IMG/VR virus record: IMGVR_UViG_3300043464_001377
Length of the DNA stretch: 64,000 bases
Direction: 5' to 3' (one strand)
DNA from: an uncultured virus (IMG/VR IMGVR_UViG_3300043464_001377)
Lineage: Duplodnaviria > Heunggongvirae > Uroviricota > Caudoviricetes
Under the pieces are notes generated by a model, which did not search any database, was not told the DNA's origin, and was given only the letters and a program-made list of their open reading frames with translations. The position numbers were made by a program, and so were the translations under genes. Positions 4,803 to 47,260 of this stretch are shown here, in pieces (the first letter of the stretch is position 1; each line of letters opens with the position of its first letter).

Positions 4803-5156
4803 GTGGCGACGATCTCTTCACTTCCCGAGACGGTTGATCTTGAGTTCGTGATTGGCGACGAGTTCACCTTCGAGGTAAATCTAGGGCTGAATGTAACTGG
4901 ATACACTCTTCATGCAACCCTCTTCAGGGCCACGGCCTTTTCGGCCAACGGAGACATGATTGGCTGGGAGATGCTGGGCACCTTCACCCAATCGCCTATT
5001 GACCTTTCACAGGGCAGGCTCAGTCTGACTCTGAACGAGAGTCAGACTGGCTACATGAGCCCAAATGAAAACTACAGATGGAGCCTGCGATGGATCGCCC
5101 CAGGAACCATCACCAAGACTGTCCGCGCTGGAAAAGTCACTCCCAGGATGTTCTGA
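4803..5156 (+). CDS. Hypothetical beta-rich protein (possibly virion-associated)
   Basis: AAGGAGG RBS, GTG start; LEFVIGDEFTFEV...GKVT. Confidence 0.6.
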   Translation: MATISSLPETVDLEFVIGDEFTFEVNLGLNVTGYTLHATLFRATAFSANGDMIGWEMLGTFTQSPIDLSQGRLSLTLNESQTGYMSPNENYRWSLRWIAPGTITKTVRAGKVTPRMF

Positions 5157-5160
5157 TCCA

Positions 5161-5457
5161 GTGCCAGAGCGATTCCCTTTCTTCAAGCCCACGCGGGGCC
5201 GAAAGAGGCCCACGCGGGTCAGCGCCTTCCGGCGAGGCTATGGCGGCAAAGCCTGGGAGAGCCTCCGGCTGAAGGTGCTGCTCAGGGACAACTGGCAGTG
5301 CCGGGCCTGCCGCAGGGTCTGCTCTGATCCCAAAGAGGCCCACTGCGATCACATTGTGCCCAAGAGGCTGGGCGGGCCTGACTCCATGGAGAATCTCCAG
5401 TGCCTGTGTGCCCGCTGCAATGCCAAGAAGGTACATGAGGATGCCAGGCTTCAATAG
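5161..5457 (+). CDS. HNH endonuclease (terminase-associated, HK97 gp74-like)
   Basis: RRGYG..WESLRLKVLLRDNWQCRAC...DHIVPK..GG.D..NLQCLCARCN; lies upstream of terS. Confidence 0.92.
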   Translation: MPERFPFFKPTRGRKRPTRVSAFRRGYGGKAWESLRLKVLLRDNWQCRACRRVCSDPKEAHCDHIVPKRLGGPDSMENLQCLCARCNAKKVHEDARLQ

Positions 5458-6042: not shown

Positions 6043-6507
6043 ATGGGACGTCCCCCAACTCCCACCAATCTGAAGGTCATCCGGGGAAATCCGGGCCAGC
6101 GACCGATCAACGCCGACGAGCCGAAGCCGCCTCCGGCGGACACGAATCCTCCGGCTCGTCTTGGCGGCGCCGCCCTCGACATGTGGAACGAGATCGTTCC
6201 GCTCCTGTCTGGCATGGGCGTGTTCACCCAGGCCGACCGGAGCGTCATCGAGCGGTACTGCCTCATGCACGAGCAGTGGCTCCACGTCGTGAAGCACGTT
6301 CAAGAACACGGCATGACCCAGTTGACTCAGACGGGGTACAGCCAACTGACAGCGGAGGGATCGTTGTTCAAAAGCCTGCCGGGGGAACTGATGCGGATCG
6401 AGCAACAGTTCGGCATGACTGCCGCCGCCCGGTCGACCATGAAGGTATCGAATGCCGCTGCCCAAGAAGACCCGCTGGAAGCGTATATCAAAAGCCGAGG
6501 CGCTTAG
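6043..6507 (+). CDS. terS: Terminase small subunit (P27 family)
   Basis: MGRPPTPTNLKVIRGNPGQRPIN...FGMTAAARS. Confidence 0.93.
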   Translation: MGRPPTPTNLKVIRGNPGQRPINADEPKPPPADTNPPARLGGAALDMWNEIVPLLSGMGVFTQADRSVIERYCLMHEQWLHVVKHVQEHGMTQLTQTGYSQLTAEGSLFKSLPGELMRIEQQFGMTAAARSTMKVSNAAAQEDPLEAYIKSRGA

Positions 6508-8119
6508 TCTCGGCTACGACTACTACTTCGACGAGGCCAAGGCGGCTCACGCCGTCGGCTTCTTCGAGAACTTTCTGATCCACTCCAAGGGTCAGTTCGC
6601 CGGAAAGCCGTTCACCCTCCTGCCCTGGCAGAAAGACGAGGTGATCGAGGAACTCTTCGGCTGGATGCGGGTCGACAACGACCAGCGTAGGTTCCGGGTC
6701 GGCTACATCGAGGTGCCCAAAAAAAATGGCGCCTTGGCCCCTGTGGCGTGGTAGCCACGGGGGCCAAGGTCGTCACACGGCAAATCGACTCTTCTCTCGG
6801 GCATCTCGCTCTATATGACTGTGGCTGACTCCGAGCCAGCCGCTGAGTGCTTCGGCGCGGCCACGTCCCGCGACCAAGCAGGCATTGTCTACAAGCAGAT
6901 GGCGGAACTTGTCCGCTCCAGCCCCTACCTGTCCAAGCGGCTGGAGATCGTCGACTCCCGCAAAACGATCGCCTGCGTTCCGACGAACTCGTTCTGGCGG
7001 GTCATTTCCAGCGACAGCCACCGAGCGGAAGGCCTCAACATCCACTCGCTCTGCTACGACGAGTTGCACTCAGCCAAGGACAGAAAACTCTGGGACGCGA
7101 TCCGCTACGGCGGCATTTCCCGTAGCCAAAGCCTCGTCCTGGCGATTACCACGGCTGGCTACGACCGATCGTCGATCTGCTACGAGCAGCACGAGCATGC
7201 CCTCAAGGTCATGCAAGACCCAAGTCTCGACCCCCAGTACTTCGCCTACATCGCGGCGGCCACCGCTGAAGATGACTACCGAGACCCGGAAGTCTGGCGG
7301 GCTGCGAATCCGTCGTTCGGCGTGACCATGGACGAGGAGAGTTTCAAGGCGGACGTCCGCGAGGCCGAGCAGTCGCCCTCCCGGCTCTCGTCATTCTTGC
7401 GTTATCGGCTCAACGTCTGGGTGGCGGGCACCGAGAAGTTCGTGAATCTGACTCAGTGGGAGCAGTGCAAGGGCCACTCCGGCCTGCTCGATTCGTCGCG
7501 GGTCTGGTATGGCGGGCTCGATCTTGCTCAGACCTGGGACGTCAACGCTTTCGTGGCGGTCTCGAAGGCCCACGACGACGTGTTCGACGTGATCTGCAAG
7601 TTCTGGATTCCAGCCGACAACGCCGACACTCGCCGCGAAGAGGTGCCGTACATCCAGTGGGCTAAAGACCCGAAGACCGGCCTGACGCTGACTCCCGGCG
7701 ACACATGCGACTACGAGTTCATCAAGCGGGACATCCTGAAGTTCGCCAAGGAGCGGACGGTCAGGCGGATCGCCACCGACCCATACAACTCGCATTACCT
7801 CGTCCAACAACTTCAGGCCGAAGGATTGGACGTGATAGGCTTCTCCCAGAACTTTTCGGCCATGAACGCGCCGACCCGCGCGCTCGACGGGCTGATCTCG
7901 CAGGGACGCCTGCGGACGAATGACAATCCGATCCTGAACTGGATGGCCGGAAATTGCACGATAAAGACCAACGCCGATGGCTACATCAAGATCGCCAAGC
8001 CAGCGGCCATGAGTCCAGCCCGAGTGGACGGCATGATCGCGCTCGTCATGGCTCTCGCACTTGCCAGCGATGCCGAGGCTGCTCCGAAGATGGCCGATCC
8101 GGAGATCATCTTGCTGTGA
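6452..8119 (+). CDS. terL: Terminase large subunit (Terminase_1 type), interrupted at 6731-6781 by a 51-nt insert with in-frame TAG
   Basis: LLPWQ, EVPKKNG|KST Walker A, YDELH Walker B, ITTAG, GGLDLA, RVDGMIA; both halves are in the same frame. Confidence 0.93.
6731..6781 (+). other. Hairpin insert in terL Walker A; candidate translational bypass element
   Basis: 17-bp stem 6731-6747/6754-6770 with TAG at 6752-6754, flanked by GGC 6728-6730 and GGC 6779-6781. Confidence 0.7.
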
Positions 8120-8168
8120 ACTTGTTCCATCGCGGGTCGATGACGATCAATGAGTGCAAGGGGGCACA

Positions 8169-11100
8169 GTGAGCGACTCCGAAAACAGAGCCTTGTCCGA
8201 CATTGTCTGGACACCCGCACGCGGGCTGTCCGAGCCCGAGATTCGTGGCATCTCGTGGAACAATTTCCTGCTGTCTGAAGAGACCTACGGCGGCCGGTGG
8301 CGGACTGAGGCCGAAGTTCGCGTCACGCCTGAGACAGCCCTCCAGTCGACCGTGGTGCTGGCGTGCTGCCGCATCTTGGCCGAGACGATCAGTTCCCTTC
8401 CCCTACACGTCTACCGGCGAGGGGAAGACGGCAGCAAAGACATCGCCCGCGATATTCCGCTGTATCGAGTCTTGTCGTTCGCTCCCAACTCCTGGCAGAC
8501 CAAGTTCGAGTTCTTCGAGCAGATGGTGATGAACCTCTGCCTGTGGGGGAACTCCTACACGCAGATCAAGAGCGGCCGGTACGGCGCTGTCTCGGAGTTG
8601 CTCAACCTCCACCCGTCTCGCATGGACGTGGAGCGGCTCGAAAACGGCCGCCTCCGCTACATGTACACGAATCCGGAGAACGGAAGACTAGAGCCGTACA
8701 CGCAAGACCAGATCATGCACGTCCGGTGGACCGCCGAGCCCGACGGCATCAAGGGCATGGTCCCAGTCGAAGTCGCACGCGAGTCGATCGCCCTCGCCAG
8801 GGCGTGCGAGATTCACGCCGCCAAGTTCTGGGCGAACTCAGCCCGGCCCGGCATGGTGCTACAGACCGACGGCTCGCTCTCGCCCGAGGCCGCCGAGCGG
8901 CTGCGAGATAATTGGGAGCGACTCCATCGCGGCGTCGACCGGGCGTACAAGACCGCGATCCTCACGAACGGACTCAAAGTCGAGCCCGTCGGCTTCACGG
9001 CCGAGCAGTCGCAGTTCGAGTCGACACGCCGCTTCCAGTCCGAGGAGATCGCGAGGGTCTATCGGTTGCCCCTCCGGCTCGTGCAGGGCCAGCCTGGCGG
9101 CAACCCGGAGATCGAGGGCCAGGACTTCGTCACCTACACGCTGGTGCCATGGCTGCGACGCATCGAGAGCGCGATCTCTCGGTCGCTGATCTACAACGAC
9201 GACCTGTTCGTCGCCGAGTTCGACGTGCGTGGACTGATGCGAGGGGACTCCAACTCTCGCGCGGGCTACTACTCCACGATGACGAACCTCGGGATTTTTT
9301 CGATCAACGACTGCCGTCGACTTGAGAACCTTCCGCCGCTCGAAAACGGCGACAAGCACTTCGTCGGCATGAACATGCAGACGATCGACGAGGCAGTCAA
9401 GCCGAAGCCCGACCCGGCAATGATGGGCGGCCCAGGAGCCCCGCCGCCGCCAGCCCAAGGCGGCGTCCCGAGCCTGCCTGAAGTCAAGACGGGCAAGGCT
9501 CCGAACCCGGCCGAGAAGGGTGAGCAGTCGAAGCCGAAAGAAGAAGGCATGCTTGTTTCTTACGGCGAAGGCAAGACCGGCCGCGTCAAGCACGTCATGG
9601 AGCAGGGCACGCTCGACCTCAAGTCTGGCGAGAAGATCGAAGTCCAGCCAGGCGAGCCCGTGGCCCTTGTCGTCGACGAAGAGACCGGCGAGGAAGCGGG
9701 CATCAAGGTCTCGCAACTCAAGCCGATCCAAGAGAAGCGGGCCCTCTCGCAGCAGAATCAGGCCCTGTACGACGCCCAGGAAGAGATCGTCAAGAAGAGT
9801 GGACGCTGGCCCCAGCAAGGCCCAAGCGGCGCCCACTACATGGAGAAGAACCCTTTCGCGTCTCGCGGCATCGCCTGCCGGAACTGCATCTACTACGAAG
9901 AGGGCGGCTCCTGCGAGATCGTCAAGGGCATCATCTCGCCCAACGCGATCTGCAAACTGTGGATCATTCCCGAAGAAAAACTCAGCATGCCAGAGTCTCG
10001 CGACTGCGGGACGGGCGCTGGCGGCTTCAAGGACGGCAACAAGTGCGCTGGCAGCAGCGACGACGGCGAGCCCGTTCGCGGTTTCCGTCGCGGCGAGGGC
10101 GATAAGAAGCAGTCTCGCGCTGCCAAGAAACTCTACCAGATGGGCACGTCTGAGCGACGCATCAAGGACTTGGTGCGACAACTCGGCGGCAAGCCTGGGC
10201 GATCGTCAGCCAAAGTCACCGGCGACAAGATCGGCATCAGAGTCCGCGACTCATCTGGCAAGGACATCTTCTACGTGGAGATGGGCTACAACGGCGCGGG
10301 CATTGTCCCCATCGGCAAGACGCTCTCGCGAGAGCAGGCGTCACAGATCGAGTCGCTCGCGAAGCCCGCGTTCCCCGACAAGATTAGCGATCGTCTCTAC
10401 AATCGCGGCAAACGGTATCCAGTCTCTGTTCATCGCGACGACGCCGTCCTCAAGACTGGCGGACGGATCGCCAAGAAGGGCAAGCAGCAGCGGGCGTACT
10501 GCCCCACGGGCGAAGGCGGCGGGATCGACAACTCGTGCGGCAGCACGACGGAGACCGCCAAGGCCAGGGACAATCGCCTCTCCAGGGAGGCCAATGCCAT
10601 CAAGGGCCCGATCGCCGCAAACGACGAGCGGCTCGCCGCCAAGGTGGACTTCAAGCCCGTCGCAGAGTCGTCCAAGAACTCTGACAGCATCCCGATGGCA
10701 AGCGACGACGCGATTCGCCTTGCATTGTCTGGAAACGTAAAGATCGACGGCCAGGAGATTCCCAAGCGAGAACTCGTCGGATCGCACCGCGAACTTGCTG
10801 AAGGAACTCCCGTCGCCCTGCGAATCGACATTCCAGCCTACGAGAAAAAGGACACGTACGCCGTCACGGTCCACAGCAAGGCGAAGTCCAAGAACGGCGT
10901 CGGCAAGGTCATTGGATTCGACTCGATCGTGACATTGTCTGGAGACGTGACGTTCGTCTCGCACGAGCCGACGGCCACAGCGATCGCAATGGGCCGCTCA
11001 AAGACTCCGCTTGCGACGGTCGTCGGCAAGTTCAAGCCGAGCCGCGAGGTTCCAGAGGACATCAACGACTGGACGGCGGTCGGCTACAACCCGAAGAAAG

Positions 11101-12299
11101 CCGCGTACTTCTACGACAAGAGGACCGGGCGTGAAGTCACCGGCGGCACCGACTCTGTCAGCATTGGCAACACGGTCTTCGTGCGAACGCCGAAGTACGG
11201 CGAGCGGTACGCCAGCGAGCAGTACAGGTCTCTGGATGACAACTCGTGGGGGCTGGAGCAGCGGGCGGAAGACTGCGGGAGAGTCGACGGCGGACTGTTT
11301 GGGCCTGGAAACAATTGCGCAGCCGACGGCGAAGGCGGCTCCAAGTCTGACCGGATCGCAGAAATGGCGATCAAGTCTATGGCCGAGACTGGAGGGTTCT
11401 CAATTCATCCAGTGTCAGAGTCAAGTCCGACGTCTGGTTACATGGTCTCGGTTGCGCCAGAGTCAGAGACCATTGTTCCATCAGCCCAAAAAGTCACAGG
11501 GCCGGTGATCGACAAGTTCTTGAAAGAAAACAAGTCTAAGTTCGAGGAGAGGCCTACACTTCACATCGGCGGCTGGATTGATTCCGAATCCAACCAAGTG
11601 TACCTTGACCTGTCGGAGCGATTTGATGACATCGACGACGCCATTGATGCGGCTGAGTCGACCAATCAACTCGCGATCTGGGACTTGAACGAGAAGAAAG
11701 AAATCAGAAAGGGCGACTACAGTGGCAGACGAACCAAAGGCAAAGGCGAAACTCGTGCGGTTCGACTTTCCGACGGGAGCGAAGGCGGAAGAGATCGCGG
11801 CGGCCATAGAGGCGGCTCGCGAGAAGATCATGGCCGAGAAGGCCGCCAAGCAGCAGACGCCCTCGTCGAAGAACTGAAGCAGTCTGGCGAGGCTGATCTC
11901 CCGAGCATCGTATTCAGGCCAACTACCGAGTCTCGCTCGGTAGTTGAGTACGACCTCGACACGGACGCGATCTACGTGTCCGACTCTCTGAATGACGAGG
12001 CCGTTGCCTCGTTCCGGCTCGCAGCAGCGAGGGGCTGGCTCTCGCAGCCCAATCCGCTCCTGCACGAACTGGCTCATCGGCATCATGCCGTGGCAGACGC
12101 CGAGTCGTACGACGCATCGGCGTCGCTCTCGTTTGACGCCGAGAACCGCGACGTCGCCAAGAGCGTTTCTCGCTACGCCGCCACGAGCCACCGCGAGTTC
12201 GTTGCTGAAGTCCTGGCTGGCCTGTGGGCCGGGAAAGAGTACGGCGACGACGTGATGCGGCTTCTCTCTTCGGTAACGAACGGAAAGTTTTCGACGTGA
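8169..12299 (+). CDS. HK97-family portal protein with ~950-aa multidomain C-terminal extension
   Basis: Portal motifs (VLACCRILAETISSLPL, PNSWQT, EEIARVYRLP, YTLVPWLRRIE, SINDCRRLENLPP), then Tudor-like, HiPIP-like CRNC..C..C, three Cys motifs and zincin HELAH; GTG start after GGGG. Confidence 0.9.
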   Translation: MSDSENRALSDIVWTPARGLSEPEIRGISWNNFLLSEETYGGRWRTEAEVRVTPETALQSTVVLACCRILAETISSLPLHVYRRGEDGSKDIARDIPLYRVLSFAPNSWQTKFEFFEQMVMNLCLWGNSYTQIKSGRYGAVSELLNLHPSRMDVERLENGRLRYMYTNPENGRLEPYTQDQIMHVRWTAEPDGIKGMVPVEVARESIALARACEIHAAKFWANSARPGMVLQTDGSLSPEAAERLRDNWERLHRGVDRAYKTAILTNGLKVEPVGFTAEQSQFESTRRFQSEEIARVYRLPLRLVQGQPGGNPEIEGQDFVTYTLVPWLRRIESAISRSLIYNDDLFVAEFDVRGLMRGDSNSRAGYYSTMTNLGIFSINDCRRLENLPPLENGDKHFVGMNMQTIDEAVKPKPDPAMMGGPGAPPPPAQGGVPSLPEVKTGKAPNPAEKGEQSKPKEEGMLVSYGEGKTGRVKHVMEQGTLDLKSGEKIEVQPGEPVALVVDEETGEEAGIKVSQLKPIQEKRALSQQNQALYDAQEEIVKKSGRWPQQGPSGAHYMEKNPFASRGIACRNCIYYEEGGSCEIVKGIISPNAICKLWIIPEEKLSMPESRDCGTGAGGFKDGNKCAGSSDDGEPVRGFRRGEGDKKQSRAAKKLYQMGTSERRIKDLVRQLGGKPGRSSAKVTGDKIGIRVRDSSGKDIFYVEMGYNGAGIVPIGKTLSREQASQIESLAKPAFPDKISDRLYNRGKRYPVSVHRDDAVLKTGGRIAKKGKQQRAYCPTGEGGGIDNSCGSTTETAKARDNRLSREANAIKGPIAANDERLAAKVDFKPVAESSKNSDSIPMASDDAIRLALSGNVKIDGQEIPKRELVGSHRELAEGTPVALRIDIPAYEKKDTYAVTVHSKAKSKNGVGKVIGFDSIVTLSGDVTFVSHEPTATAIAMGRSKTPLATVVGKFKPSREVPEDINDWTAVGYNPKKAAYFYDKRTGREVTGGTDSVSIGNTVFVRTPKYGERYASEQYRSLDDNSWGLEQRAEDCGRVDGGLFGPGNNCAADGEGGSKSDRIAEMAIKSMAETGGFSIHPVSESSPTSGYMVSVAPESETIVPSAQKVTGPVIDKFLKENKSKFEERPTLHIGGWIDSESNQVYLDLSERFDDIDDAIDAAESTNQLAIWDLNEKKEIRKGDYSGRRTKGKGETRAVRLSDGSEGGRDRGGHRGGSREDHGREGRQAADALVEELKQSGEADLPSIVFRPTTESRSVVEYDLDTDAIYVSDSLNDEAVASFRLAAARGWLSQPNPLLHELAHRHHAVADAESYDASASLSFDAENRDVAKSVSRYAATSHREFVAEVLAGLWAGKEYGDDVMRLLSSVTNGKFST

Positions 12300-15200
12300 T
12301 TTTTCTGGAAGAAGAGTACCGGGCATTCTGCCCCACCGGCGACGGCGGCGGCGTCAAGAACGACTGCTCGTCGCAGGACGGCAGCGGAGCAAGGACCGAC
12401 AACTCGTGGAAGCGGGAGCAGGGACCAGTTCGCATTGCCGGTGATGACCTGAAGCAGTCTCCTCCGGCCAAGTCGCTCGCTGGCGTGAAGGCAGTCGTCA
12501 TCATGGACGGCGAACTGGTCAACAAGTCGCTCCGCGAGGTCGGCGTCACGCTTGATCAAGCGGCCAGAGCATGCGCGGCCCTCGACCCGGAGGCCCAGGT
12601 CACGATATCCCACGGCGGGCTGCTTGAGATCATCGAGTTCATGGGAAGCGATGACCCGGAGCGGTACATCGAAGACACCGTGACGTTCACGAGCGAGATG
12701 CCCGTGGCTGGCATCGAGGGCGCTGCTCGGACTGCCGCATCGCTGACGAGGACCGAAGAAGACGGACTCGTCATGTCCTACACGATGCTGATGATCAGCG
12801 ACGAGGCCAAGCAGAAAGCCAGCGTCGCCGTCGCTCGTCACATGATGAAGGGCGCGATCGCAAGCATTACGCAGGCTGAGAAGATCGGCGTCGACAGGGT
12901 CGAGATGCTGGCCGCCGGTGATAGCGGCAAGAACTCTGACTTCAAGGGCTATCGCATCTGGCCGAGGCTCGGCTTCAACGGCGTGATTCCACGCAGGCAT
13001 GTCACGCCCACATGGTCGCTCGCAACTGGGTTCTTCAACTCCTACGGCAGCGGCATCCCAGACAAGATTCTCTCGCCTCGCGCTCGCAAAGAGAAGGCCG
13101 CAGGAGCCTTGACGATCCAGTCTCTGTACGAGACCAAGGAGGGCCAGGAGTGGTGGGAAGAGAACGGCGGCGAGATGGAGATGTCGCTCGCCGTCGGCAG
13201 CAACAGCGATCCTGGCTGGAAGCGATTCAAGTCCCTGCGTGACAGGTTCTCGAAGCGAGGCCTGGACTTGACTGACGCCTTCTTTGACGCCGAGGCTAGA
13301 GCCCTGCTTGATGGCGACTGGGCTGAGTTGCGTGCCTACTGCCCAACAGGCGAAGGCGGCGGCATCGACAATACGTGCAGCCCAGGCGGCCAGTCTTCTG
13401 CGGCTCCCGCCAAGGCGGACGACTCGTGGAAGGAGTCGAAGTCGTCTCTATCTATCTCTGGCGATGGGCTCAAAGACAAGCCGCCATTCACAGGTGCAGA
13501 CAAAGCAGGAAGCGTCGCTATTCCAAACCCGCAGGGACTTGCGGATGGAATGTCTGACGCTGGCATCAAGTCGCTCGACGAACTCGCTGCCATGAGCGGC
13601 GCGACAATTCGCGGGAGTAAGGTGACGTTCTTTGGAGCGTCAGGCGGCAACGACGGCACCGGCGCCTTCATCACCATTGATAACGAAATCCCGCTTGCCC
13701 GCGATGGCAGTGATTCGGAAGGCCAATTTGACGTCAACGTCGCTGTGTATCGGGACGACGGAGAGTATGTGCTTGGCTTCAACGGCATGTACCCAGACAA
13801 GGCTGCGACTGCCACTCGCGAGAGGGTCGCAAAAGCCACTAGCCTTATGCAGCAGGCTGTTATCGAGGCGATCGCCAGCGTCGAAAAGACAGGAATCTCG
13901 AAGGTCAAGATGAGTGCCGCTGGCGGCCCCGAGTATGAACTCAAGGGATATCGCCTGTGGCCGCAGTTTGGATTCGATGCCATGCTCGACAAGAGCAGCA
14001 AGCATTCGCTCTCCCAGGCCCCGCAGGCAGTGGTCGAGAAGTTGATGCGGACTGCGAGGCCCGATCTTTTTGCGACGCGGATCACGCCATCGCACGCTGC
14101 CCTTGTCGCGGCCCTGCCTCACAGCGACATCACCGTGCAGCACCTCGTCTCATTCCACGAAGGCGACGTCTGGTGGAACGAGAACGGCACAACTCTGAGC
14201 ATGACTCTCGACCTGTCGGACAAGAAGAGCCTCGGCTACGCCAAGTTCCAGAAACAAACGTCGCGGCTCAAGAGGCTCAAGGAGCGAAATCAGTCGCGGG
14301 CGTTCTTCGAGTGGCTCGAAGAAGAGGCTGAGTTCAGGGCCGGGGCTGACTGCGGTCGGGTCGATGGAGGCCGGTTTGGAAGCGGCAACGACTGCGCCAG
14401 CGATGGCTCGTCGTGGGAGGACGAAGAGAGCGTCGACATGGACGCGGAAGCCATTTCGTCGTCGCCGCCGTTCAAGGGCGCCGAAGTCCTCGATTCGTTC
14501 TCCGTGAACGATGTCCAGTCTCTGAAGGACACGCTCTCTGACTTCGGGAGAGTCAAAGGCGTCAAGGACGTTGTCGCAATCAGCGGCGGCGTTCGTCAGG
14601 GCGGATCAGTCGGAATCGACGCCTTCGGCGACTCCATTATCGTCAACTCCGCGATTCCAGTTGCGCCGGACGGCTCTGGTCGTCTTGGCAACATCAAGAA
14701 CATGGTGTCGCTGATGAAGGACGACGACGGGTATCTCGTCGTCAACTACGACAGCATGTCGCTGGATTCTGCCGCCATGTCATCCATCAGCGGAGACTTG
14801 GAAGATGACTCGGCCGACAGGCGTCGAATCGTCAGTCTCGTGTTGGAGCGAATGACGGAGTCGCTCTCTGTCGCCGAGGAGTCTGGAGCAATCCGGGCCG
14901 ACACGATCGCCGCCGGAACGTCGACCAGTGCCCTGCAAGGATATCGGCTGTGGCCGCAGTTTGGTTTCGATGGCGAACTCGATAGGGCCGACATCGACGC
15001 CATCAAGGAGGACATCAAACTCACGCCGTACCAGAAGCGTAGGGCACTCACAGGCCAGATGACCGTTCAGGACTTGATCGCCACGCCCGAAGGCGATCGC
15101 TGGTGGAACGAGAACGGCACGACGATTGAACTGACGCTCGACTTCACCGACCAGACCAATGCTGGCTACAAGCGTTTCGAGCGAATGAAGAAGATGCTTG

Positions 15201-18200
15201 CCCGGCTGAAGGAACGCAACAAGACTCGCAGTGCGTTCGACGATGGCGTCGAGCGTCGCGACGACTGCGAGCAGACCGAGAGCGGCCAGTTCGCCAAGGG
15301 CAATGACTGCGCGAAGGGCGACGGATCGCCGTCGAAGGAAAAAGAGAAGAAACCCCGCGCTGCGAAGAAGTCTGAGGAGCCAGCCAAGGAGCCGCTCAAG
15401 TGGACGCCTGGCGCGAGCCACGTCGACGTCTTCAAGGAGTCTGTCGAGAAGAGCCCAACCAAGCGGAGCGACGACGGCAAGAAGATTCTTTCCACGTCCG
15501 TCCCAGGCGCCACGCCAGTGCGTGGACTTGCAGGCAAGGACGAGATCGACCCGATCTCGGTCGGCAACTACCTCGTCGCCAGGCAGGCCGAGCATCGTGG
15601 CCGCACCATCGACACTACGAAGCCGCTCGAAGGAGATGACTTCGAGTACATGGTGTCTGGCATCGTGTCCCAGGTCGAGTCCGCGCGGGCTCGCGGAGTC
15701 TCGCCCAACTTCTACAGCCCAGAGGACCGCCGGACACAGATCGAAGAGTACGCCAAGATTCAGCCGCTCATGCGAGGCGGCAGGACAGCGTCAGGATTCT
15801 GCGTCGGCGTCGAGGGCCCCAACGGAGAGTGCGAGCCGTCTGAAGGCATCTCGCCGCAGGCAGAGTTTCTGTTCCGTGCCGCTCAGGCTTTGACTTCACC
15901 GGAAGCCAACCCGTACGAGAACATGCTCCGGGCGGACGCCGTGCTGACGGCGTTCTTCGAGGAGCCAGACCCGAGCAAGGCGAAACTCGGCAGCGGCATT
16001 CGCATTGCCGGAGCCGGAGCCGAGAACACGCTCGCTGACTTCGCGAGACTCCAGAAGATCATCGACCGCGTCGGCCTTGAGGAGGCTCGCCGGATATTCA
16101 CCGGGCCGCCGATCAAGGTCAGCGACTTCGAGAAGTTCTTCCTCTCGAAGGTTCCTGGCACCGAAGGCGATCGCTACAAGGCGAACGACTACGCCGTCGC
16201 CGAAGTTGTCCCGCCGTTCAGCATCTTCGGTCCTAAAGTTGGCCCGTTCTTCGCCAACAACACCGGCGACGATGAGGCCCTCACCGCTGACATCTGGTTC
16301 ACGCGAACGTGGGGCAGGCTCTCAGGCGAGTTGGTGTCCAAGTCTTCGGAGTCTCTCGCGAAGAAGCATGCCTCGGACTTGATGGCGTCGACCAAGGACA
16401 TCCCCCGCAAAGAACTCGCTGCGATGGGCTTGGACGGTAGGCAGTTCCGGACGCTCGTCGCGCAGATGAAGAGGACTGGCGTCATTCCGCAGCAGATCGC
16501 AGACTGGGCCGAGGCGAGAGACAAGCAGTACAAGAAGGACAAGTTCCCGAATCCCAAAAACGGAACCGGCACAGCCGAGCGATACAAACTGGATCGCTTG
16601 GCTGTTGCCATCCTGAAAAACCAAGCCAACGTCATGCGGGCGCCTACGACGTCTGTCATGCGGGCGAACATGATCCGCGCGATGCGTGAAGCCGCCAAGA
16701 GAACCGGAGTCTCGGTCGCCTACATGCAGGACATCCTGTGGCAGGACGAGCAGGATGCGTGGGGCACGCTTGGGTCTCGCACGACCACGGTCCCAGGCGA
16801 GCCCTCGCTCTACTCGGAAGTGATCCGCAAGATCGTCACCGAGCCAGCGAACTACCAGAAGCGGCGGCGAGAGAGCAAGCGTTCTCTCGGAGTCATCGCC
16901 GAGCCGATGAGCCTGCCTCTGTATTCCGACCAGAAGGGCGGCCCCGAGCAGGCTCTGTTCGCGGACTTCATCGCGAGCATGGACGACGATGAGTTCGCCG
17001 ACCTCGCGGTCGAGTTCCTGACCAAGCGAGCCAAGGAGTCTCGCGCCTTCTGCCCCACGGGCGACGGCGGCGGGCTCGACAACTCGTGCAGCGCCACCGA
17101 CGGAAAACTCAAGGCGCAGTCAGCGGAACTGTTCAGAGGAGAGCCGTCGTTCGTAGATCAAGACGACGGCTACATCTATCATGTGACGACAGAAGAGAAC
17201 GCAAAGAAAATCCTTTCCGACGGGTTCTCAAGGCCGCTTGGCTCCAAGGCAACAGTCAAGGGCGGCGCCTACGAGAACTACTCAAAAGGCAAGGTGTTCT
17301 TCACAGAAAAGAGCGGGCTTGCGGCGTGGAAGAGCAAGATCGAGGAACATCTGTTTCACTCGTCTGACGACCCGCCACCAGCGGCGATCATACGAATCAA
17401 GAAGTCCGATGTCTCGCACCTTCTGAGCGATGATCATGTTGGGACACAAGACGCCGGAAGCCAAGCCTACTTCATTGACCTGTCGAAGCGCAAGCAGAAG
17501 AGGGCCTTCTGCCCCACTGGCGACGGCGGCGGGGTCGACAACTCGTGCGGCTCTGACGACGGCTCGCCTGCGGCAGGCTCGCCTGGCCGCACGCAGGAGT
17601 CGCTGCCCAAGTCCTTCCCTCGCGGCTCCGATAAGTTCCGCGACGCCATCGACTCCGTCTCGCCCGATCCGAAGTCTGTCTGGGACAGGGCAAAGGGTCG
17701 CGCGGACACGCCGCCTGAAAAGATTCTCACGTCGGCCGCCGACGAGCAGACGTCTTCTGGGTCGTCGCTGACTCCAGAGGCCGAGAAGTCCTACGCCGAC
17801 CTCGTCGACGAGATCGGCAGGCAGTACGAGGCCCTCGTGGCGGCAGGGCTCAAGGTCAGGGCCTGGAGAGGCGAAGGCGAACCGTACGGCGACCCGCCGG
17901 GCAGCACGAAGCCAAACTCGGACAAGATGCGAGAAGAGGTCGCCAAGACCGGCGAGTTCTCGTTCTTTATGACCGAGCGAGGATTCGGCACTGGCTCGGC
18001 CACGCCCGACCACCCGATGCTTCGCGAGACGAAGTACAAGACTGCCGATGGCGAGCCCATGATCGCCAACGACCTGTTCCGTGTCGTCCATGACATGGTC
18101 GCGCACGTTCGCGGCGGCTACTCGTTCTCAACCAACGGCGAGTACAACGGCATGCTGACCCATGCCTCGACGCTTCCCGAAGGCGCGTGGCCTGCCCTGT

Positions 18201-19444
18201 TCGCTGAGACGTTCGGCCAGAACGCCGTGTACGAGAAGACCGGCAACTACGCCGCCCAAAACGCCTACGCCTCGAAGATTGGCCCCGAGATCATCAAGGC
18301 AGAGTTGGCGAAGCGGAACCGGAAGGCCCGCCGAGCCGTCGACGCCGAAGACGAGGGCGACGAGCCGCTCGGATACCAGCACCTCAAGGTGCGGCCGTGG
18401 CTGATGCGGCCAGCGACCGAGCAGCGGTCGGCCGACTGCGGCCGCGACGAGGGCGGGCGATTCGGCAGCGGCAACGACTGCGCGGCCGAGGGCAGCAGCG
18501 GCGGACCCGCCACGGCCTCGCCTCCATCGTCCAGCGGAACGTGGTCGAGCAACGAGTCGGCAACATGGCCCGCGTCCTCCCGAGACTCGTCGCCGCCGCC
18601 GATTGGCGACGGCCGGTACGGCTCGATCGACATCTCATCGCCGAAAGCAGTGAAGGCATCACTGGATGCGGCTGGCGTCGACCCGAAGTTGGCCCCCATG
18701 GTCGCCGGTGGCAGCGACGAGTCTGACGTGTTCGTCCGCCCTGCCCCAGACTTCTCCGTGGAGTTCCCAGGCTCGAAAGTCACGCCTGTGATGTTCGCCT
18801 TCGAGCGGGACTTCGCCGGGGTCGAAAGCGGCCTGCACGGCTCGTCAGTGATCGGCGTCACGGCGGCTGGCGAGACTGTCGTCTATCACAGCACTGTCAA
18901 CGTGTCAGACTCGATCAAGCAGGACGACGCGAAGCGGCACGCCGCCGCCCGAGAGTTCTATCGAGCCATGGTCTCGTCGGTGGAGGCAGCACACAAAGCG
19001 GGCGTGTCTCGCATCGTCCTCAATGCGGCCGGTAACTCGTCGGCCACGAAGGGGAGCCTGACGTCGACACCGTGGCGAGGCTACACGATCTGGCCCCGCA
19101 TGGGCTTCGACGCGCCACTCCCGTCGAGCATCAAGGCCAAACTGCCGCCAGACTTGTCTCACGCCAAGTCTCTTCTCGATCTGCACGCCACGCCCGACGG
19201 CACCCGCTGGTGGCGAGACAACGGAGAAGACCTCGACGTGAAGTTCGATCTCACGGACAGGTCGAGTCCGCAGTCCAAGATCATGGACCGCTTCATCAAG
19301 AAGTTCGGCACCGATCGTCGCGAAATGCCGCTCGGGTCTGGCGACGAGTGGCTGTCTCCCGAGGACATGCTGCGGCTTGACGAAATGTGGAACGAGATTT
19401 GGGACGACGGGGAACTGGACGACTATGAGTGGAACGATGCCTGA
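12296..19444 (+). CDS. Giant polyvalent (multi-effector) head-associated protein, ~2380 aa
   Basis: GTGA overlap with portal stop; four GYxxWPxxGF GNAT-like modules, TADIWFTR glycosylase-like, YHVT ART-like and FRVVHD zincin-like domains; seven Cys motifs. Confidence 0.8.
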   Translation: MIFLEEEYRAFCPTGDGGGVKNDCSSQDGSGARTDNSWKREQGPVRIAGDDLKQSPPAKSLAGVKAVVIMDGELVNKSLREVGVTLDQAARACAALDPEAQVTISHGGLLEIIEFMGSDDPERYIEDTVTFTSEMPVAGIEGAARTAASLTRTEEDGLVMSYTMLMISDEAKQKASVAVARHMMKGAIASITQAEKIGVDRVEMLAAGDSGKNSDFKGYRIWPRLGFNGVIPRRHVTPTWSLATGFFNSYGSGIPDKILSPRARKEKAAGALTIQSLYETKEGQEWWEENGGEMEMSLAVGSNSDPGWKRFKSLRDRFSKRGLDLTDAFFDAEARALLDGDWAELRAYCPTGEGGGIDNTCSPGGQSSAAPAKADDSWKESKSSLSISGDGLKDKPPFTGADKAGSVAIPNPQGLADGMSDAGIKSLDELAAMSGATIRGSKVTFFGASGGNDGTGAFITIDNEIPLARDGSDSEGQFDVNVAVYRDDGEYVLGFNGMYPDKAATATRERVAKATSLMQQAVIEAIASVEKTGISKVKMSAAGGPEYELKGYRLWPQFGFDAMLDKSSKHSLSQAPQAVVEKLMRTARPDLFATRITPSHAALVAALPHSDITVQHLVSFHEGDVWWNENGTTLSMTLDLSDKKSLGYAKFQKQTSRLKRLKERNQSRAFFEWLEEEAEFRAGADCGRVDGGRFGSGNDCASDGSSWEDEESVDMDAEAISSSPPFKGAEVLDSFSVNDVQSLKDTLSDFGRVKGVKDVVAISGGVRQGGSVGIDAFGDSIIVNSAIPVAPDGSGRLGNIKNMVSLMKDDDGYLVVNYDSMSLDSAAMSSISGDLEDDSADRRRIVSLVLERMTESLSVAEESGAIRADTIAAGTSTSALQGYRLWPQFGFDGELDRADIDAIKEDIKLTPYQKRRALTGQMTVQDLIATPEGDRWWNENGTTIELTLDFTDQTNAGYKRFERMKKMLARLKERNKTRSAFDDGVERRDDCEQTESGQFAKGNDCAKGDGSPSKEKEKKPRAAKKSEEPAKEPLKWTPGASHVDVFKESVEKSPTKRSDDGKKILSTSVPGATPVRGLAGKDEIDPISVGNYLVARQAEHRGRTIDTTKPLEGDDFEYMVSGIVSQVESARARGVSPNFYSPEDRRTQIEEYAKIQPLMRGGRTASGFCVGVEGPNGECEPSEGISPQAEFLFRAAQALTSPEANPYENMLRADAVLTAFFEEPDPSKAKLGSGIRIAGAGAENTLADFARLQKIIDRVGLEEARRIFTGPPIKVSDFEKFFLSKVPGTEGDRYKANDYAVAEVVPPFSIFGPKVGPFFANNTGDDEALTADIWFTRTWGRLSGELVSKSSESLAKKHASDLMASTKDIPRKELAAMGLDGRQFRTLVAQMKRTGVIPQQIADWAEARDKQYKKDKFPNPKNGTGTAERYKLDRLAVAILKNQANVMRAPTTSVMRANMIRAMREAAKRTGVSVAYMQDILWQDEQDAWGTLGSRTTTVPGEPSLYSEVIRKIVTEPANYQKRRRESKRSLGVIAEPMSLPLYSDQKGGPEQALFADFIASMDDDEFADLAVEFLTKRAKESRAFCPTGDGGGLDNSCSATDGKLKAQSAELFRGEPSFVDQDDGYIYHVTTEENAKKILSDGFSRPLGSKATVKGGAYENYSKGKVFFTEKSGLAAWKSKIEEHLFHSSDDPPPAAIIRIKKSDVSHLLSDDHVGTQDAGSQAYFIDLSKRKQKRAFCPTGDGGGVDNSCGSDDGSPAAGSPGRTQESLPKSFPRGSDKFRDAIDSVSPDPKSVWDRAKGRADTPPEKILTSAADEQTSSGSSLTPEAEKSYADLVDEIGRQYEALVAAGLKVRAWRGEGEPYGDPPGSTKPNSDKMREEVAKTGEFSFFMTERGFGTGSATPDHPMLRETKYKTADGEPMIANDLFRVVHDMVAHVRGGYSFSTNGEYNGMLTHASTLPEGAWPALFAETFGQNAVYEKTGNYAAQNAYASKIGPEIIKAELAKRNRKARRAVDAEDEGDEPLGYQHLKVRPWLMRPATEQRSADCGRDEGGRFGSGNDCAAEGSSGGPATASPPSSSGTWSSNESATWPASSRDSSPPPIGDGRYGSIDISSPKAVKASLDAAGVDPKLAPMVAGGSDESDVFVRPAPDFSVEFPGSKVTPVMFAFERDFAGVESGLHGSSVIGVTAAGETVVYHSTVNVSDSIKQDDAKRHAAAREFYRAMVSSVEAAHKAGVSRIVLNAAGNSSATKGSLTSTPWRGYTIWPRMGFDAPLPSSIKAKLPPDLSHAKSLLDLHATPDGTRWWRDNGEDLDVKFDLTDRSSPQSKIMDRFIKKFGTDRREMPLGSGDEWLSPEDMLRLDEMWNEIWDDGELDDYEWNDA

Positions 19445-21566
19445 AAAATACTCCCACATCGACTTCACCCCGCCCGACGGCGTCCGCAAAGAGGCCGAGA
19501 AGGGCCTCGCCTGGCGGCGTGAGCATGGACGCGGCGGCACGGCCGTTGGCATTGCCCGTGCGCGAGACTTGTCGAACGGCACGCAACTCTCGCCATCCAC
19601 CGTTCGTCGAATGAAGGCCTTCTTTGATCGCCACGAGATCGACAAGAAGGGCGAGGGCTGGAACCCAGGAGACGATGGCTTCCCGTCCAACGGGCGAATC
19701 GCGTGGGCTCTGTGGGGCTCCGACGCGGGGCGGGCGTACGCTCGCAAGGTCGTCGAGCAGATGAACGCCGCCGACGAGAAGGAGGGGCGGTCGCTGCGGC
19801 CATTCGGCTCGACGCAGGGCATCAAGCCCAACGTCTTTGTCGTCCACGGAGCCCCAGCCAGCGGCAAGACGTCCTACGTGATGCAGCACAAAGGCGACAA
19901 CGACGTGATCTTCGACTTCGACAAGGTGATGAGCGCCCTGTCAGGTCTGCCGCCGCACCAGAAAAACAAGAACCTGATCTCTTATTGTACGGATATCAGA
20001 GCCCTTATCATCAAAAAGGCCCTCCGGAAGCCGACAGTCGACAAGACGTGGATCATCACCACAAACATCGGCGACGAGATGAAGGGCCAACTGTCCGACA
20101 TTCCGGTCGAGTACATCCACGTCGACACTCCGAAGGAGGAGTGCCTGAAGCGAATCGAGGAAGACCCAGACCGCCAGCCCGTCGCGGAGGAGTTGCGAGA
20201 GGCTGTCGAGCGGTATTTTTCATCAGAGCAAAGGAGTGCCCCTGTGCTGCCCAACGTCGAGCGTCGGTTTCTTGGCAACTTCAGTAACGTCGAGAAGGCC
20301 GACCCCGATTTGCTTCGAGTCGAGAAGCGGGCTGATCCGAACACTGGCAAGCCGCAGACCTACGTTATCGGGTACGCGGCCCGCTTTGGGAAAGATTCGT
20401 TGCTTCTCGGGGACTTTGTCGAGAGAATTGATCCGAGTGCGTTCTCGCTTGTCGAGAGCCGCGAGGACGGCGAGGGGAGGCCGCTAGAGACTCGCTGCCT
20501 GTTCAACCACGACCCAAACCATCTCCTGGGCCGCTTTCCGACGACGATGAAGATGACCGTCGACGAGAAGGGCCTTCGGTACGAGTGTCTGCTGCCAGAG
20601 TCGCGGGCTGATTTGGCCGAGTCGATTTCTCGCGGAGACTTGCGTGGCTCAAGTTTCAGTTTCGTCGTGGCAGAAGGCGGCGAGAAGTGGAGTTACGAGA
20701 ACGGCCGGTCAACGAGACTTGTCACCAGGATCAAGTCACTGCTGGACTGCGGCCCGGTCACGTACCCTGCTTATGGCGACGCCACTGTTGCAGTAGCCAA
20801 GCGGAGTTATCAGCAGTTCCAGAAGTCTGGACACGCTGATTCCCGCAACCAGACCAAGGCTAAGGTCGCCGAAGAGTTGGCGAAGACGAAGAAGTTCCTC
20901 GAAGAGCGGGCGTTCTGTGCGACCGGCCCAGACGGAGGAATCGACAACTCGTGCAGCGCTGGCAGCGGCGGGAGCAAAGGAAGAGGAAAGTCTGGGGGCG
21001 GCAAAAAAGGCGCCAAGAAGGACAGGCCAGACACTGGAGGCTCAGGCGTAGCCAGCAGCGCAGCAAAAGGGGCGGCGATCGGGGCGGCGATCGGAGCCGT
21101 CCCAGGTGGCGCCGCTGGTGCCGGAGTTGGTGCCGTCGCAGGAGGAATCATCGGTGCGGCAAAGGCCGCCCTCGAAAAGAAGAGCGACCCGCCGTACATG
21201 GAACTCAAAAAGGGTGATCATAAAAACACTGGAAAAATGAAGGAAGCCCAAGACTTCATCGACAAGGCACGCCAGGAGCAACTCTCAAAGGGTGGCAAGG
21301 ACGGCGGCAAGTCCGACGAAGGCGGCGGCGTCCAGACATGGAGCAAGGGTGATGATTTCCCGTGGACGACCAAGCGCGTCGGCACGGACGAGGGGTATGT
21401 GCAGGGCATTCATCCAGACGGAAGCAAGACGGAGAAGTATCCGTTCAAGGGAGATGCAAGCGAGGCTTATAAGGCCGCAAGCGGCGAGATCGCCAAGAAG
21501 AAGGGCAAGCGGTCCCGCGACGTCGTTCGCGAGACGCTGGCCTTCCTGAAGGAACGGTCGAGATGA
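19437..21566 (+). CDS. HK97-family prohead protease fused to extra N-terminal domains (incl. P-loop) and a C-terminal tail
   Basis: IGYAARF, FVERIDPSAF, LFNHD, RGDLRGSSFSF, GPVTYPAY; P-loop HGAPASGKT. Confidence 0.9.
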   Translation: MPEKYSHIDFTPPDGVRKEAEKGLAWRREHGRGGTAVGIARARDLSNGTQLSPSTVRRMKAFFDRHEIDKKGEGWNPGDDGFPSNGRIAWALWGSDAGRAYARKVVEQMNAADEKEGRSLRPFGSTQGIKPNVFVVHGAPASGKTSYVMQHKGDNDVIFDFDKVMSALSGLPPHQKNKNLISYCTDIRALIIKKALRKPTVDKTWIITTNIGDEMKGQLSDIPVEYIHVDTPKEECLKRIEEDPDRQPVAEELREAVERYFSSEQRSAPVLPNVERRFLGNFSNVEKADPDLLRVEKRADPNTGKPQTYVIGYAARFGKDSLLLGDFVERIDPSAFSLVESREDGEGRPLETRCLFNHDPNHLLGRFPTTMKMTVDEKGLRYECLLPESRADLAESISRGDLRGSSFSFVVAEGGEKWSYENGRSTRLVTRIKSLLDCGPVTYPAYGDATVAVAKRSYQQFQKSGHADSRNQTKAKVAEELAKTKKFLEERAFCATGPDGGIDNSCSAGSGGSKGRGKSGGGKKGAKKDRPDTGGSGVASSAAKGAAIGAAIGAVPGGAAGAGVGAVAGGIIGAAKAALEKKSDPPYMELKKGDHKNTGKMKEAQDFIDKARQEQLSKGGKDGGKSDEGGGVQTWSKGDDFPWTTKRVGTDEGYVQGIHPDGSKTEKYPFKGDASEAYKAASGEIAKKKGKRSRDVVRETLAFLKERSR

Positions 21567-47193: not shown

Positions 47194-47260
47194 TGTCGCA
47201 TGACGAGTGGACGTCACCCGTCGTAAAGCCCAGTCGATTCGATTTCCAAGGAGCAGCCCA

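Follow-up and report, generated by a model that had tools for sequence, protein, structure and literature searches.

The 64-kb stretch of DNA from an uncultured lake phage that is considered here (IMG/VR record IMGVR_UViG_3300043464_001377; 'the window' below means the whole of this stretch) carries a gene for a large terminase subunit (terL) that is interrupted, within the codons of its ATP-binding Walker A motif or 'P-loop', by a short insert that folds into a hairpin. Comparison with its relatives identifies this insert as one of a set of 'coding gap' cassettes of 39-51 nucleotides (nt), each composed of a GC-rich hairpin and a short A/C-rich tail, and each lodged at the Gly-Lys codon junction of Walker A in an HK97-type terL gene. 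Judged from these comparisons, the feature is real, conserved, selected and mobile. The best reading of it, to which a probability of roughly 0.58 is assigned, is that the cassettes form a new, non-homologous family of translational bypass elements similar in kind to the one in gene 60 of phage T4, and that ribosomes would hop across them without decoding.

The interrupted terminase gene

The genome type reads as temperate and siphovirus-like. The terL frame begins with an ATG at position 6452 and runs as far as ...YIEVPKKN-G, where the Gly codon (GGC, 6728-6730) is the 'take-off' codon of the bypass reading. It is followed in turn by the two arms of a stem (GCCTTGGCCCCTGTGGC, 6731-6747, and GCCACGGGGGCCAAGGT, 6754-6770) around the loop GTGGTA (6748-6753), by a spacer (CGTCACAC, 6771-6778), and by a second GGC (6779-6781, the 'landing' codon), downstream of which AAA TCG ACT encodes KST and continues as KSTLLSG; in translation, the same frame then stays open until the stop codon at 8117-8119. 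The stem contains 17 base pairs (bp), two of which are G.U pairs (6731 with 6770, and 6742 with 6759), and a TAG lies in frame at 6752-6754. A first-pass annotation of the window, made by a model from the letters alone, had described this arrangement (the GGC pair, the 17-bp stem with two G-U pairs, the TAG and the 51-nt gap) correctly to the base, and its remark that the rest of terL and the virion module look intact agrees with the domains found with Pfam and PHROGs and with the intact gene halves.

Apart from the insert the gene is, by its domains (PF03354 plus PF20441), an ordinary HK97-type large terminase, and it is the only terL that Pfam and PHROGs find in the window. An insertless relative (P0001; 538 amino acids (aa), 95% identical) reads EVPKKNGKSTLLSG, that is, it is without exactly these 17 codons. 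The only solved relative, the terminase chain 6z6d_A, matches residues 28-522 of the insertless relative with an E-value of 3.9e-52, and PKKNGKS is aligned to ARKNGKT. When positions 6700-6810 are folded as RNA, a free energy of -61.5 kcal/mol is obtained, as against -36.7 +/- 3.5 kcal/mol for 200 shuffled sequences (z -7.07, with no shuffle as good); the 40-nt hairpin is present in a single copy in the window, with none expected by chance.

The palindromic nature of the insert raises the question of an artefact of assembly or sequencing. A 1-kb stretch is present, at 98-100% of its words, in 12 lake or freshwater metagenome runs (from 2016, 2020 and 2024), and contigs from three of these runs (X1, 2016; X2, 2020; X5, 2024) span positions 6300-7300 with neither a difference nor an insertion or deletion. 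None of the runs found to contain the stretch was an RNA run, and three possible RNA runs contained only 5-6% of its words, a figure that is silent on expression. The window may itself stem from some of the lake runs, though it cannot stem from all three years, and from the identity of the three contigs it follows that the insert is not an artefact, contrary to a case that the first-pass annotation had set down as one that would refute it. The nearest record, a 19-kb viral contig that is identical over terL (G001), was not counted as independent. In one further run (X13) the contigs end short of the hairpin on either side (6680 and 6828), as an artefact at the palindrome might suggest; either the palindrome broke the assembly, or the sample is a mixture of alleles that have the insert and alleles that lack it. 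Set against the spanning contigs from three runs and three years, and against 31 variants with compensatory stem changes in 49 other contigs (described below), an artefact is so improbable as to be negligible.

Relatives and the anatomy of their inserts

A protein search returned relatives of three types: full-length proteins of 538-545 aa; many proteins of 404-466 aa that start either at a Met after the Walker A motif or in a non-homologous stretch directly before GKSTLLSG; and forms of 778-877 aa, three of them with an intein and homing-endonuclease domains (the intein-type proteins of this search being P0002, P0024 and P0045). A scan of IMG/VR gave 463 relatives, the best 80 of which were used, and a junction anchor could be recognised in 60 loci and in the window. 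Two were left out of the tree (L007, which is the same record as G001 and identical to the window, and L063, in which the C part has only 108 aa), leaving 59 rows: 32 with a gap, 21 with none and 6 with an intein. A pattern scan for flanks plus gap produced 28 matches, two of them new, and one for the hairpin core produced 52. Among the 35 core matches on new contigs, 15 lie at the P-loop of further, much more distant terL lineages; the other 20 fall outside a GKS/T coding context, several being followed by runs of T in the manner of a terminator. Finally, a pattern scan of metagenomes gave 19 matches, four of which are genuine hairpin gaps in terL that IMG/VR had already supplied; the remaining 15 were set aside as chance matches, being without hairpin or terL context.

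In total, IMG/VR yielded 49 gap-bearing contigs (from 46 dataset ids), 21 insertless ones and seven with an intein, and the gap-bearing contigs hold 31 distinct insert sequences, all at one codon position. Insertless relatives at 95-99% identity have the compact PKKNGKST loop. The first-pass annotation had proposed that terL genes of related phages be aligned to see whether hairpins of varying sequence, with matched flanks, occupy the same codon, and such hairpins are what the survey found, with GGN on both sides in 28 of the 31 distinct inserts. Among cultured phages there was no TerL of more than 40% identity and no two-piece match, and a scan of genome contigs returned three loci, none covering the junction region. 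Five public protein calls of 463-466 aa (P0031, P0037, P0041, P0043 and P0054) begin within insert types beyond these, such as MVPWPPRLDAVGAKVPT-GKST and VAPAGLRWRGQAS-GKST; going by these N-termini, more variants exist than the 31 analysed.

Relative to insertless alleles, the length added is 39 nt in one variant, 46 in three, 47 in nine, 48 in five, 49 in three, 50 in six and 51 in four, so that 30 of the 31 lengths fall within 46-51 nt; ten variants are in frame, six in +1 and 15 in +2. The statement of the first-pass annotation that the gap is in frame thus holds for the window and fails as a general trait, and the occurrence of all three frames rules out simple read-through more firmly than the window alone could. 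The hairpins have 17-22 pairs, a loop of 3-6 nt and folding free energies of -33 to -48 kcal/mol, and in the predicted dot-bracket structures the hairpin always starts within 0-2 nt of the codon after the Asn, which places it next to or inside the take-off codon in all variants that possess such a codon. The spacer behind the hairpin is A/C-rich and 0 to ~8 nt long. It contains no GG in any of the 31 variants, which makes the landing GGN the first GG after the hairpin in all of them; because the spacer varies in length, it must be the sequence, and not a fixed distance from the stem, that sets the 3' boundary of the gap.

The triplets at the two ends of the insert region are GGC/GGC in 19 variants, GGC/GGA in four, GGT/GGC in two, and GGC/GGT, GGG/GGT and GGT/GGA in one each. 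These flanking Gly triplets vary at their third position only, on both sides: the two codons are identical in 19 of the 31 variants, both are GGY in three more, and six have a mismatch at the third position. In one of the remaining variants (L178) matched Asn triplets are found instead, AAT before the gap and AAC at its end, so that the pair is shifted one codon upstream. Upstream of take-off, Lys-Lys-Asn is spelled AAAAAAAAT in 25 of the 31 gap variants, as compared to one of ten insertless junction types.

The shortest variant (L148, from IMGVR_UViG_3300010354_012981) adds 39 nt, has a TAA in its loop and no spacer, and places the landing GGC inside the 3' arm; its host gene is a distant TerL (GKTTLMAAL...), seen with flanks of 150 nt only.

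Selection on the gene and against reading of the insert

Every one of the ten in-frame variants carries an in-frame stop in the loop, which is TAA, TAG or TGA depending on the lineage. Among the 21 out-of-frame variants a 0-frame stop in the gap occurs in five (Fisher 6.8e-5 for the comparison with 10 of 10, relatedness uncorrected). A stop is therefore kept, as far as this distribution indicates, exactly where read-through would yield a terminase with a bloated P-loop. In 13 of the 31 variants, the window included, a stop blocks every path through the insert, even one with a single frameshift; the other 18 have a stop-free path once a frameshift is permitted. That the insert is translated after all, by read-through of the stop or by a frameshift that the hairpin stimulates at the A-run, giving 13-17 extra residues in the P-loop, might be suggested by those 18 variants and by the sequence A AAA AAU with a strong hairpin a few bases on, which in our own reading resembles a -1 frameshift site. 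It is very unlikely in view of the 13 variants that offer no path, the stop in all ten in-frame variants, the compact PKKNGKST of the insertless relatives, and the encoded peptide, which differs by frame among the variants. An intein, removed after translation, was rejected as the identity of the insert, since all three frames occur and stops are present.

The gene might instead be split, with its halves acting as separate polypeptides, and public gene callers do present the 3' part as a protein of its own (434-466 aa). However, 18 of the 31 variants, including the window, have no ATG, GTG or TTG in the landing frame upstream of GKST, and in the other 13 the start codon is buried in the hairpin and comes without a motif of Shine-Dalgarno (SD) type; in the window, the first in-frame start is ATG 6815, which lies past the Walker A lysine. 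A split of this kind would also divide the P-loop, and it gives the duplicated Gly codon no role. A split terminase, which the first-pass annotation had named as a refuting case, is thus about as improbable as a translated insert.

Finally, the gene could be dead, disabled by a selfish or accidental insertion, in phages that are defective or that use a terminase supplied by a helper. Standard decoding of the gene as written gives no terminase, and the integrase in the window makes a prophage possible. Against this, all full-length gap-bearing loci have an intact N part (at least 93 codons) and an intact C part (443-451 codons). Within two clades composed entirely of gap-bearers (8 sequences and 28 pairs, and 6 sequences and 15 pairs), the ratio of nonsynonymous to synonymous divergence (dN/dS) of the C part is 0.10 in the first clade and 0.07 in the second, and that of the N part 0.16 and 0.145, at proportions of synonymous differences (pS) of 0.32-0.54. 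Taken over all pairs of gap-bearers, median dN/dS is 0.23 for the C part and 0.28 for the N part, with a median pS of 0.64; synonymous sites are here near saturation, which makes these values unreliable, and only those from within the clades were used. By this measure both gene halves are under purifying selection. Together with the 49 contigs in 46 datasets, the identical sequence from 2016 to 2024 and the intact head and tail module, this leaves a dead gene very improbable, and the case of an insert unique to a defective prophage, which the first-pass annotation had also raised, was not borne out. The combination of an insert that cannot be translated into a working enzyme with a gene that is kept under purifying selection requires that the insert be skipped exactly.

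Sense-strand RNA structure

In an alignment of the 31 variants over the 17 pairs of the stem, 97.0% of 525 cells are paired, and 11 of the 17 pairs have changed on both sides. When the partner is slid by 1-3 columns the pairing falls to 41-52%, and none of 500 shuffles reaches the observed value, a count that is no probability because the rows are related. At the same time the sequence is conserved, with a mean column identity of 81% and an invariant CCC/GGG core. The table of individual pairs contains 65 G.U cells as compared to 16 unpaired cells; a G.U pair would correspond to an A.C mismatch on the antisense RNA and to a G.T mismatch in DNA, so the structure under selection is that of the mRNA. 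The first-pass annotation had inferred 'ribosome hopping or precise RNA/DNA-level excision', of which hopping and RNA excision still stand, and DNA-level excision is disfavoured by the reliance of the stem on sense-strand G.U pairs.

Known structured RNAs do not account for the hairpin. Rfam gives no match in the window at gathering thresholds, and an E-value search of positions 6600-6900 returned only a microRNA model and a hepatitis C virus stem-loop model, at E-values of 0.06-0.09 and far under gathering. A group I or group II intron, or an intron built on another known ribozyme, was rejected on the basis of this result and of the length of the insert, 39-51 nt as opposed to hundreds of nucleotides. 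A dispersed palindromic repeat, similar to repetitive extragenic palindromes (REP) or miniature inverted-repeat transposable elements (MITE), or a multi-copy element like the mitochondrial byps described below, was likewise rejected: the window contains one copy, and of the 35 new core matches 15 lie at the terL P-loop, the other 20 being outside a GKS/T coding context. An inverted-repeat scan of the window found no similar hairpin, a result that says little about uniqueness because the scan also missed the terL hairpin itself.

Mobility and the neighbouring inteins

On the TerL tree the gap state needs nine changes, at least six of which are forced by well-supported branches, and the clade of the window comprises, in seven rows within ~0.04 substitutions per site, four insertless alleles, two gaps and one intein. 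When L201, L221 and L198 are compared with L204 (clade 1), the TerLs are 38-43% identical as protein and 51-53% identical as DNA, and the inserts 87-92% identical; the inserts of L201 and L041 differ at one of 50 nt. TerLs that are closer to one another (73% identical) have inserts that are only 81% identical. In the distant pairs, identity reaches ~18-23 nt upstream of the insert (TACATYGAGGTGCCCAAAAAAAAT, synonymous sites included) and ~14 nt downstream, and then falls to background; the Lys-Lys-Asn spelling AAAAAAAAT belongs to this common flank. The presence of inserts that are 92-98% identical, together with short identical flanks, in TerLs of ~40% identity implies that the cassette spreads horizontally, and the spreading unit is, by the extent of this identity, the insert plus short coding flanks.

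An endonuclease gene that might drive such spread was sought nearby. An HNH gene (by tblastn) lies upstream of terL in 23 of the 24 loci with enough flank, in gap, insertless and intein alleles alike, and terS is also found upstream. Since its presence does not depend on the allele at the terL site, the HNH gene is context and not part of the cassette, and it was rejected as a candidate for a gap-specific homing endonuclease. HNH genes that adjoin HK97-type terminases are packaging co-factors.

The seven intein alleles carry an insert of ~336 aa, with LAGLIDADG or Hom_end matches, between the Lys and the Ser of the same motif (GK/...THN/ST), only 3 nt from the site of the hairpin. In one of them (L040) the host TerL shares 95% identity with the insertless P0001. 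Across the 49 gap and seven intein contigs, a gap and an intein are never found in the same allele. An insert of 46-51 nt at 3 nt from the intein point would split an endonuclease target that spans it, which makes protection from intein homing plausible; the persistence of the cassette could thus plausibly be owed to its being selfish, or else to its disrupting the target site of the LAGLIDADG intein endonucleases. The first-pass annotation had suggested that the insert is a timer or switch on DNA packaging, for which no support emerged; the data point to a horizontally moving cassette that is selfish or protective.

In one intein-bearing relative (L063, IMGVR_UViG_3300034101_002327) the C part of terL closes after 108 aa and the match is ~450 nt longer than the others; this locus may hold a second interruption further downstream.

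Proposed mechanism and its main rival

If the cassettes are bypassed, a ribosome would decode ...Lys-Lys-Asn-Gly, which leaves its peptidyl-tRNA(Gly) paired to the take-off GGY, at the base of the hairpin. The peptidyl-tRNA would then let go of this codon, and the ribosome would slide across the hairpin without decoding, probably driven forward by the refolding of the hairpin behind it. The unstructured, G-poor tail would be scanned, the tRNA would re-pair at the first GGN, and decoding would resume at AAR-TCN (Lys-Ser) to give PKKNGKST. Those ribosomes that fail to hop would be stopped (by the TAG, in the window), so that no terminase with a disrupted P-loop is made. Bypassing would account at once for the duplicated GGN triplets, the shift to Asn in L178, the sequestering of the take-off codon by the stem, the G-free tail with its first GGN as landing site, the 3' boundary fixed by sequence, the gap of ~47-50 nt and the stops. 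Two further observations bear little on the matter: an SD-like motif is present 4-16 nt before the landing codon in 23 of the 31 variants, but is uninformative because the 3' arm is G-rich anyway, and the YIEVPKKNG upstream of take-off is conserved, yet it is the P-loop strand and would be conserved in any case.

Several features weigh against bypassing. No stop and no rare or slow codon follows take-off, the next codon being GCC, GTC, CGC, TCC or GTG; stops, where present, come 18-24 nt into the gap (7-8 codons on, in the loop), and 16 of the 21 out-of-frame variants have no gap stop. With 17-22 bp and -33 to -48 kcal/mol, the hairpin greatly exceeds the small take-off stem-loop of gene 60 in size. 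Three variants depart from the matched-Gly rule: L018 lands on TGC, and L027 and L178 have no 5' Gly codon (the N-terminus of the protein P0041 resembles L027 in this). In L027 the take-off AAT is to be compared with the ATC before the resumed GGC, a match at two of three positions, and the GGC/TGC of L018 likewise matches at two of three. Five variants would take off at GGY and land on GGA, with a mismatch at the third position. Lastly, all 31 variants fit one fixed cutting rule, in which ...AAUG is kept and rejoined at G[N]AAR. As this single rule of cutting and rejoining covers every variant, excision at the level of the nucleic acid would explain the exceptions L018, L027 and L178 more simply.

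The main rival is accordingly a form of RNA-level excision, in which the insert would be a protein-dependent 'mini-intron' that an endoribonuclease cuts at the hairpin foot and in the tail, and an RNA ligase (of RtcB type or similar) rejoins ...AAUG to G[N]AAR. The shared junction pair, seen by inspection in 31 of 31 variants with L018, L027 and L178 among them, fits this well; a sense-strand hairpin of conserved sequence (the 81% mean column identity and the invariant CCC/GGG noted above) would suit a sequence-specific RNA-binding enzyme; the stop in the in-frame variants is equally expected of an incompletely spliced intron; and the phage encodes a Ro/TROVE-like RNA-binding protein (phrog_850, 5.3e-49). 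On the other hand, neither Pfam nor PHROGs finds an RNA ligase, RtcB or splicing endonuclease in the window, there is no match to an Rfam family or ribozyme, and at ~50 nt the element falls far short of the size of a group I or II intron. A nuclease that measures from structure would be hard to reconcile with a 3' junction lying anywhere from 0 to ~8 nt beyond the stem, and neither the GGN flanks with free third positions (28 of 31) nor the matched Asn shift of L178 is predicted by an intron model. Bacteria and their phages are not known to have such an excision system. Excision of the RNA is considered less likely than bypassing but is still a serious rival, and translational bypassing remains the preferred reading. 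The dead gene, read-through or frameshifting, the split protein and the artefact together account for a small share of the probability, and what remains belongs to something not thought of.

A bolder form of the bypass reading, which is offered tentatively and is more doubtful than the reading itself, would have the element be a protein-free, self-spreading RNA cassette of ~90 nt in the Walker A codons of TerLs only ~40% identical, one that enables any bacterial ribosome to hop ~50 nt by hairpin refolding and landing on the first GGN, dispensing with the stop codon, the homing-endonuclease gene and the dedicated nascent peptide that gene 60 has. Such a cassette would be kept because it destroys the target of the LAGLIDADG inteins, and the TerL P-loop would be an arena for the repeated evolution of hopping.

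Comparison with known systems

The closest parallel is gene 60 of T4, which contains a coding gap of 50 nt and belongs to a mobile cassette that brings short coding flanks with it (bioRxiv 10.1101/2022.08.31.505936); pairing of the mRNA as it exits the ribosome has been proposed as the driver of its bypassing (bioRxiv 10.1101/2024.12.09.627546). This last proposal suggests a possible motor for the single long hairpin of terL. Gene 60 and its myovirus topoisomerase homologues share with the terL cassettes a gap of ~50 nt in the gene of an essential phage enzyme, Gly codons for take-off and landing (putative ones in terL), a stem-loop opening at the take-off codon, a gap whose 3' portion is unstructured and could be scanned, a stop in place for ribosomes that do not hop, mobility together with short flanking coding sequence, and repeated insertion at one site. 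In contrast to gene 60, the terL cassette lies in the Walker A motif of a terminase and not in a topoisomerase, has no homing-endonuclease gene (mobA) travelling along with it, lacks a stop or 'hungry' codon directly after take-off, consists of one GC-rich hairpin of 17-22 bp and not of a small take-off stem-loop plus accessory structures, and ends in a tail that is A/C-rich and not AU-rich. Because the cassette resides in TerLs only ~40% identical, any signal from the nascent peptide must be the P-loop strand itself. The cassette was not assigned to the homologous T4 gene 60/MobA family, given that the gene is terL, no mobA is linked and the portal gene comes directly after terL; judged by anatomy alone, nothing points to homology with the gene 60 cassette.

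A second parallel concerns terminases themselves. A report on Streptomyces phage phiHau3 and two prophages describes candidate bypassing of blocks of 7-10 nt in the large terminase, in gaps that begin with the rare codon UUA and are proposed to sense the availability of the tRNA (PMC10732093). The first of the phiHau3 gaps, at ...KGWG/KD, reads as a Walker A-like G/K junction, a reading that is ours and not a claim of that paper. The two cases are alike in the gene affected and in the adjacency of the flanks in insertless relatives; unlike the phiHau3 gaps, those described here are 39-51 nt long, dominated by a hairpin, free of a rare codon, and found in dozens of uncultured freshwater phages.

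The byp elements of Magnusiomyces capitatus mitochondria are described as short non-coding inserts in essential genes that are bypassed and mobile, with 81 per genome (bioRxiv 10.1101/2022.08.31.505936). They resemble the terL cassettes in being short inserts in essential genes that need bypassing and that behave as mobile elements, and differ in occupying many genes and sites, where the terL cassette occupies one codon of one gene. Byps are GC-rich and form hairpins. The LAGLIDADG inteins of the same TerL family share with the hairpin cassette its hot spot and a patchy distribution with fast turnover; in contrast, they are translated, are removed at the protein level and encode an endonuclease, whereas the cassette encodes nothing. 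Beyond the work on gene 60 and phiHau3, a literature search that left most subscription journals outside its reach returned no report of hairpin gaps of ~50 nt in terminases.

Other features of the window

The coordinates of the features discussed are collected in Table 1. Besides these, Pfam and PHROGs identify a prohead protease, a pair of tail chaperones, a tape measure and an integrase, and the head and tail module is intact.

Table 1. Features in and around the interrupted terL (window coordinates, except for the intein alleles, which are given by contig)
Feature	Position	Strand	Basis
HNH endonuclease gene, upstream of terS/terL	5065..5457	+	Pfam HNH 3e-10
terS, small terminase, overlapping the terL start	6043..6507	+	Pfam Terminase_4 4.3e-17
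terL 5' coding part, 93 codons, ending YIEVPKKN plus putative take-off Gly	6452..6730	+	Open reading frame (ORF) list, translation; aligned to P0001 residues 1-93
Lys-Lys-Asn spelled AAAAAAAAT (A8U run), abutting the take-off codon 5'	6719..6727	+	Spelling in 25/31 gap variants
RNA hairpin, 17-bp stem and 6-nt loop; five more pairs can take in the take-off codon	6731..6770	+	Folding, covariation
In-frame TAG, at the border of loop and 3' arm	6752..6754	+	Sequence, translation
Unpaired A/C-rich spacer CGTCACAC, without any GG	6771..6778	+	Comparison of 31 variants
Putative landing Gly GGC; would be re-paired and not decoded under bypassing, with 6731-6781 (51 nt) skipped	6779..6781	+	GGN/GGN in 28/31 variants
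terL 3' coding part: KSTLLSG, rest of ATPase domain, nuclease domain, stop	6782..8119	+	Pfam TerL_ATPase 5.4e-21, TerL_nuclease 8e-35
Portal gene with long C-terminal extension; intact packaging/head module follows	8154..12299	+	Pfam Phage_portal 3e-93
Intein alleles of relatives	L040:2038-3063; L059:792-1817; also L029, L031, L036, L047, L063		LAGLIDADG/Hom_end

Several neighbouring genes have unusual layouts. The C-terminal extension fused to the portal protein (8154-12299) amounts to ~1000 aa and includes a weak Phage_L5_gp82-like stretch (residues 909-998). Directly after it comes an ORF of 2406 aa (12224-19441) with no Pfam family and one weak PHROG match of unknown function. The prohead protease (Peptidase_S78; 19377-21563) is fused to an N-terminal part that matches AAA_33 and a 'terminase small subunit' PHROG (residues 150-287). 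Two overlapping ORFs (29430-29771 and 29714-30073) match tail assembly chaperone and Phage_tail_T families in the layout usual for a programmed -1 frameshift (G/T-like). The gene for the Ro/TROVE-like protein (phrog_850 5.3e-49; Pfam TROVE 3.5e-13) adjoins one for an AAA_5 (MoxR-like) ATPase, the two at 45311-46636 and 47207-48553; Rfam and tRNA scans of the window found neither a Y-RNA-like match nor a tRNA.

Significance

For decades, the understanding of efficient long-range bypassing has rested on one model, T4 gene 60 and its homologues, and the only other cases that literature searches returned are the byps of yeast mitochondria and the weakly supported short gaps of phiHau3. The terL gaps would offer a second, unrelated family from bacterial viruses, and one that comes with 31 natural sequence variants: a ready mutational series that covers three reading frames, a range of gap lengths, different pairs of take-off and landing codons, the presence or absence of a stop, and compensatory changes in the stem. 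Their anatomy, one hairpin and one tail, is also much simpler than that of gene 60. If hopping is the true explanation, the family would show which of the gene 60 signals are dispensable, and would allow a direct test of the refolding of exiting mRNA as the forward drive; if RNA excision is, the cassettes would be bacterial mini-introns of a kind not described before.

There is a practical consequence as well, in that gene callers split or truncate these terminases (hence public calls of 434-466 aa), and the terminase is the commonest marker used to classify phages. Finally, the link to the inteins at the same P-loop provides a concrete and testable case in which one selfish element may shield a site from another.

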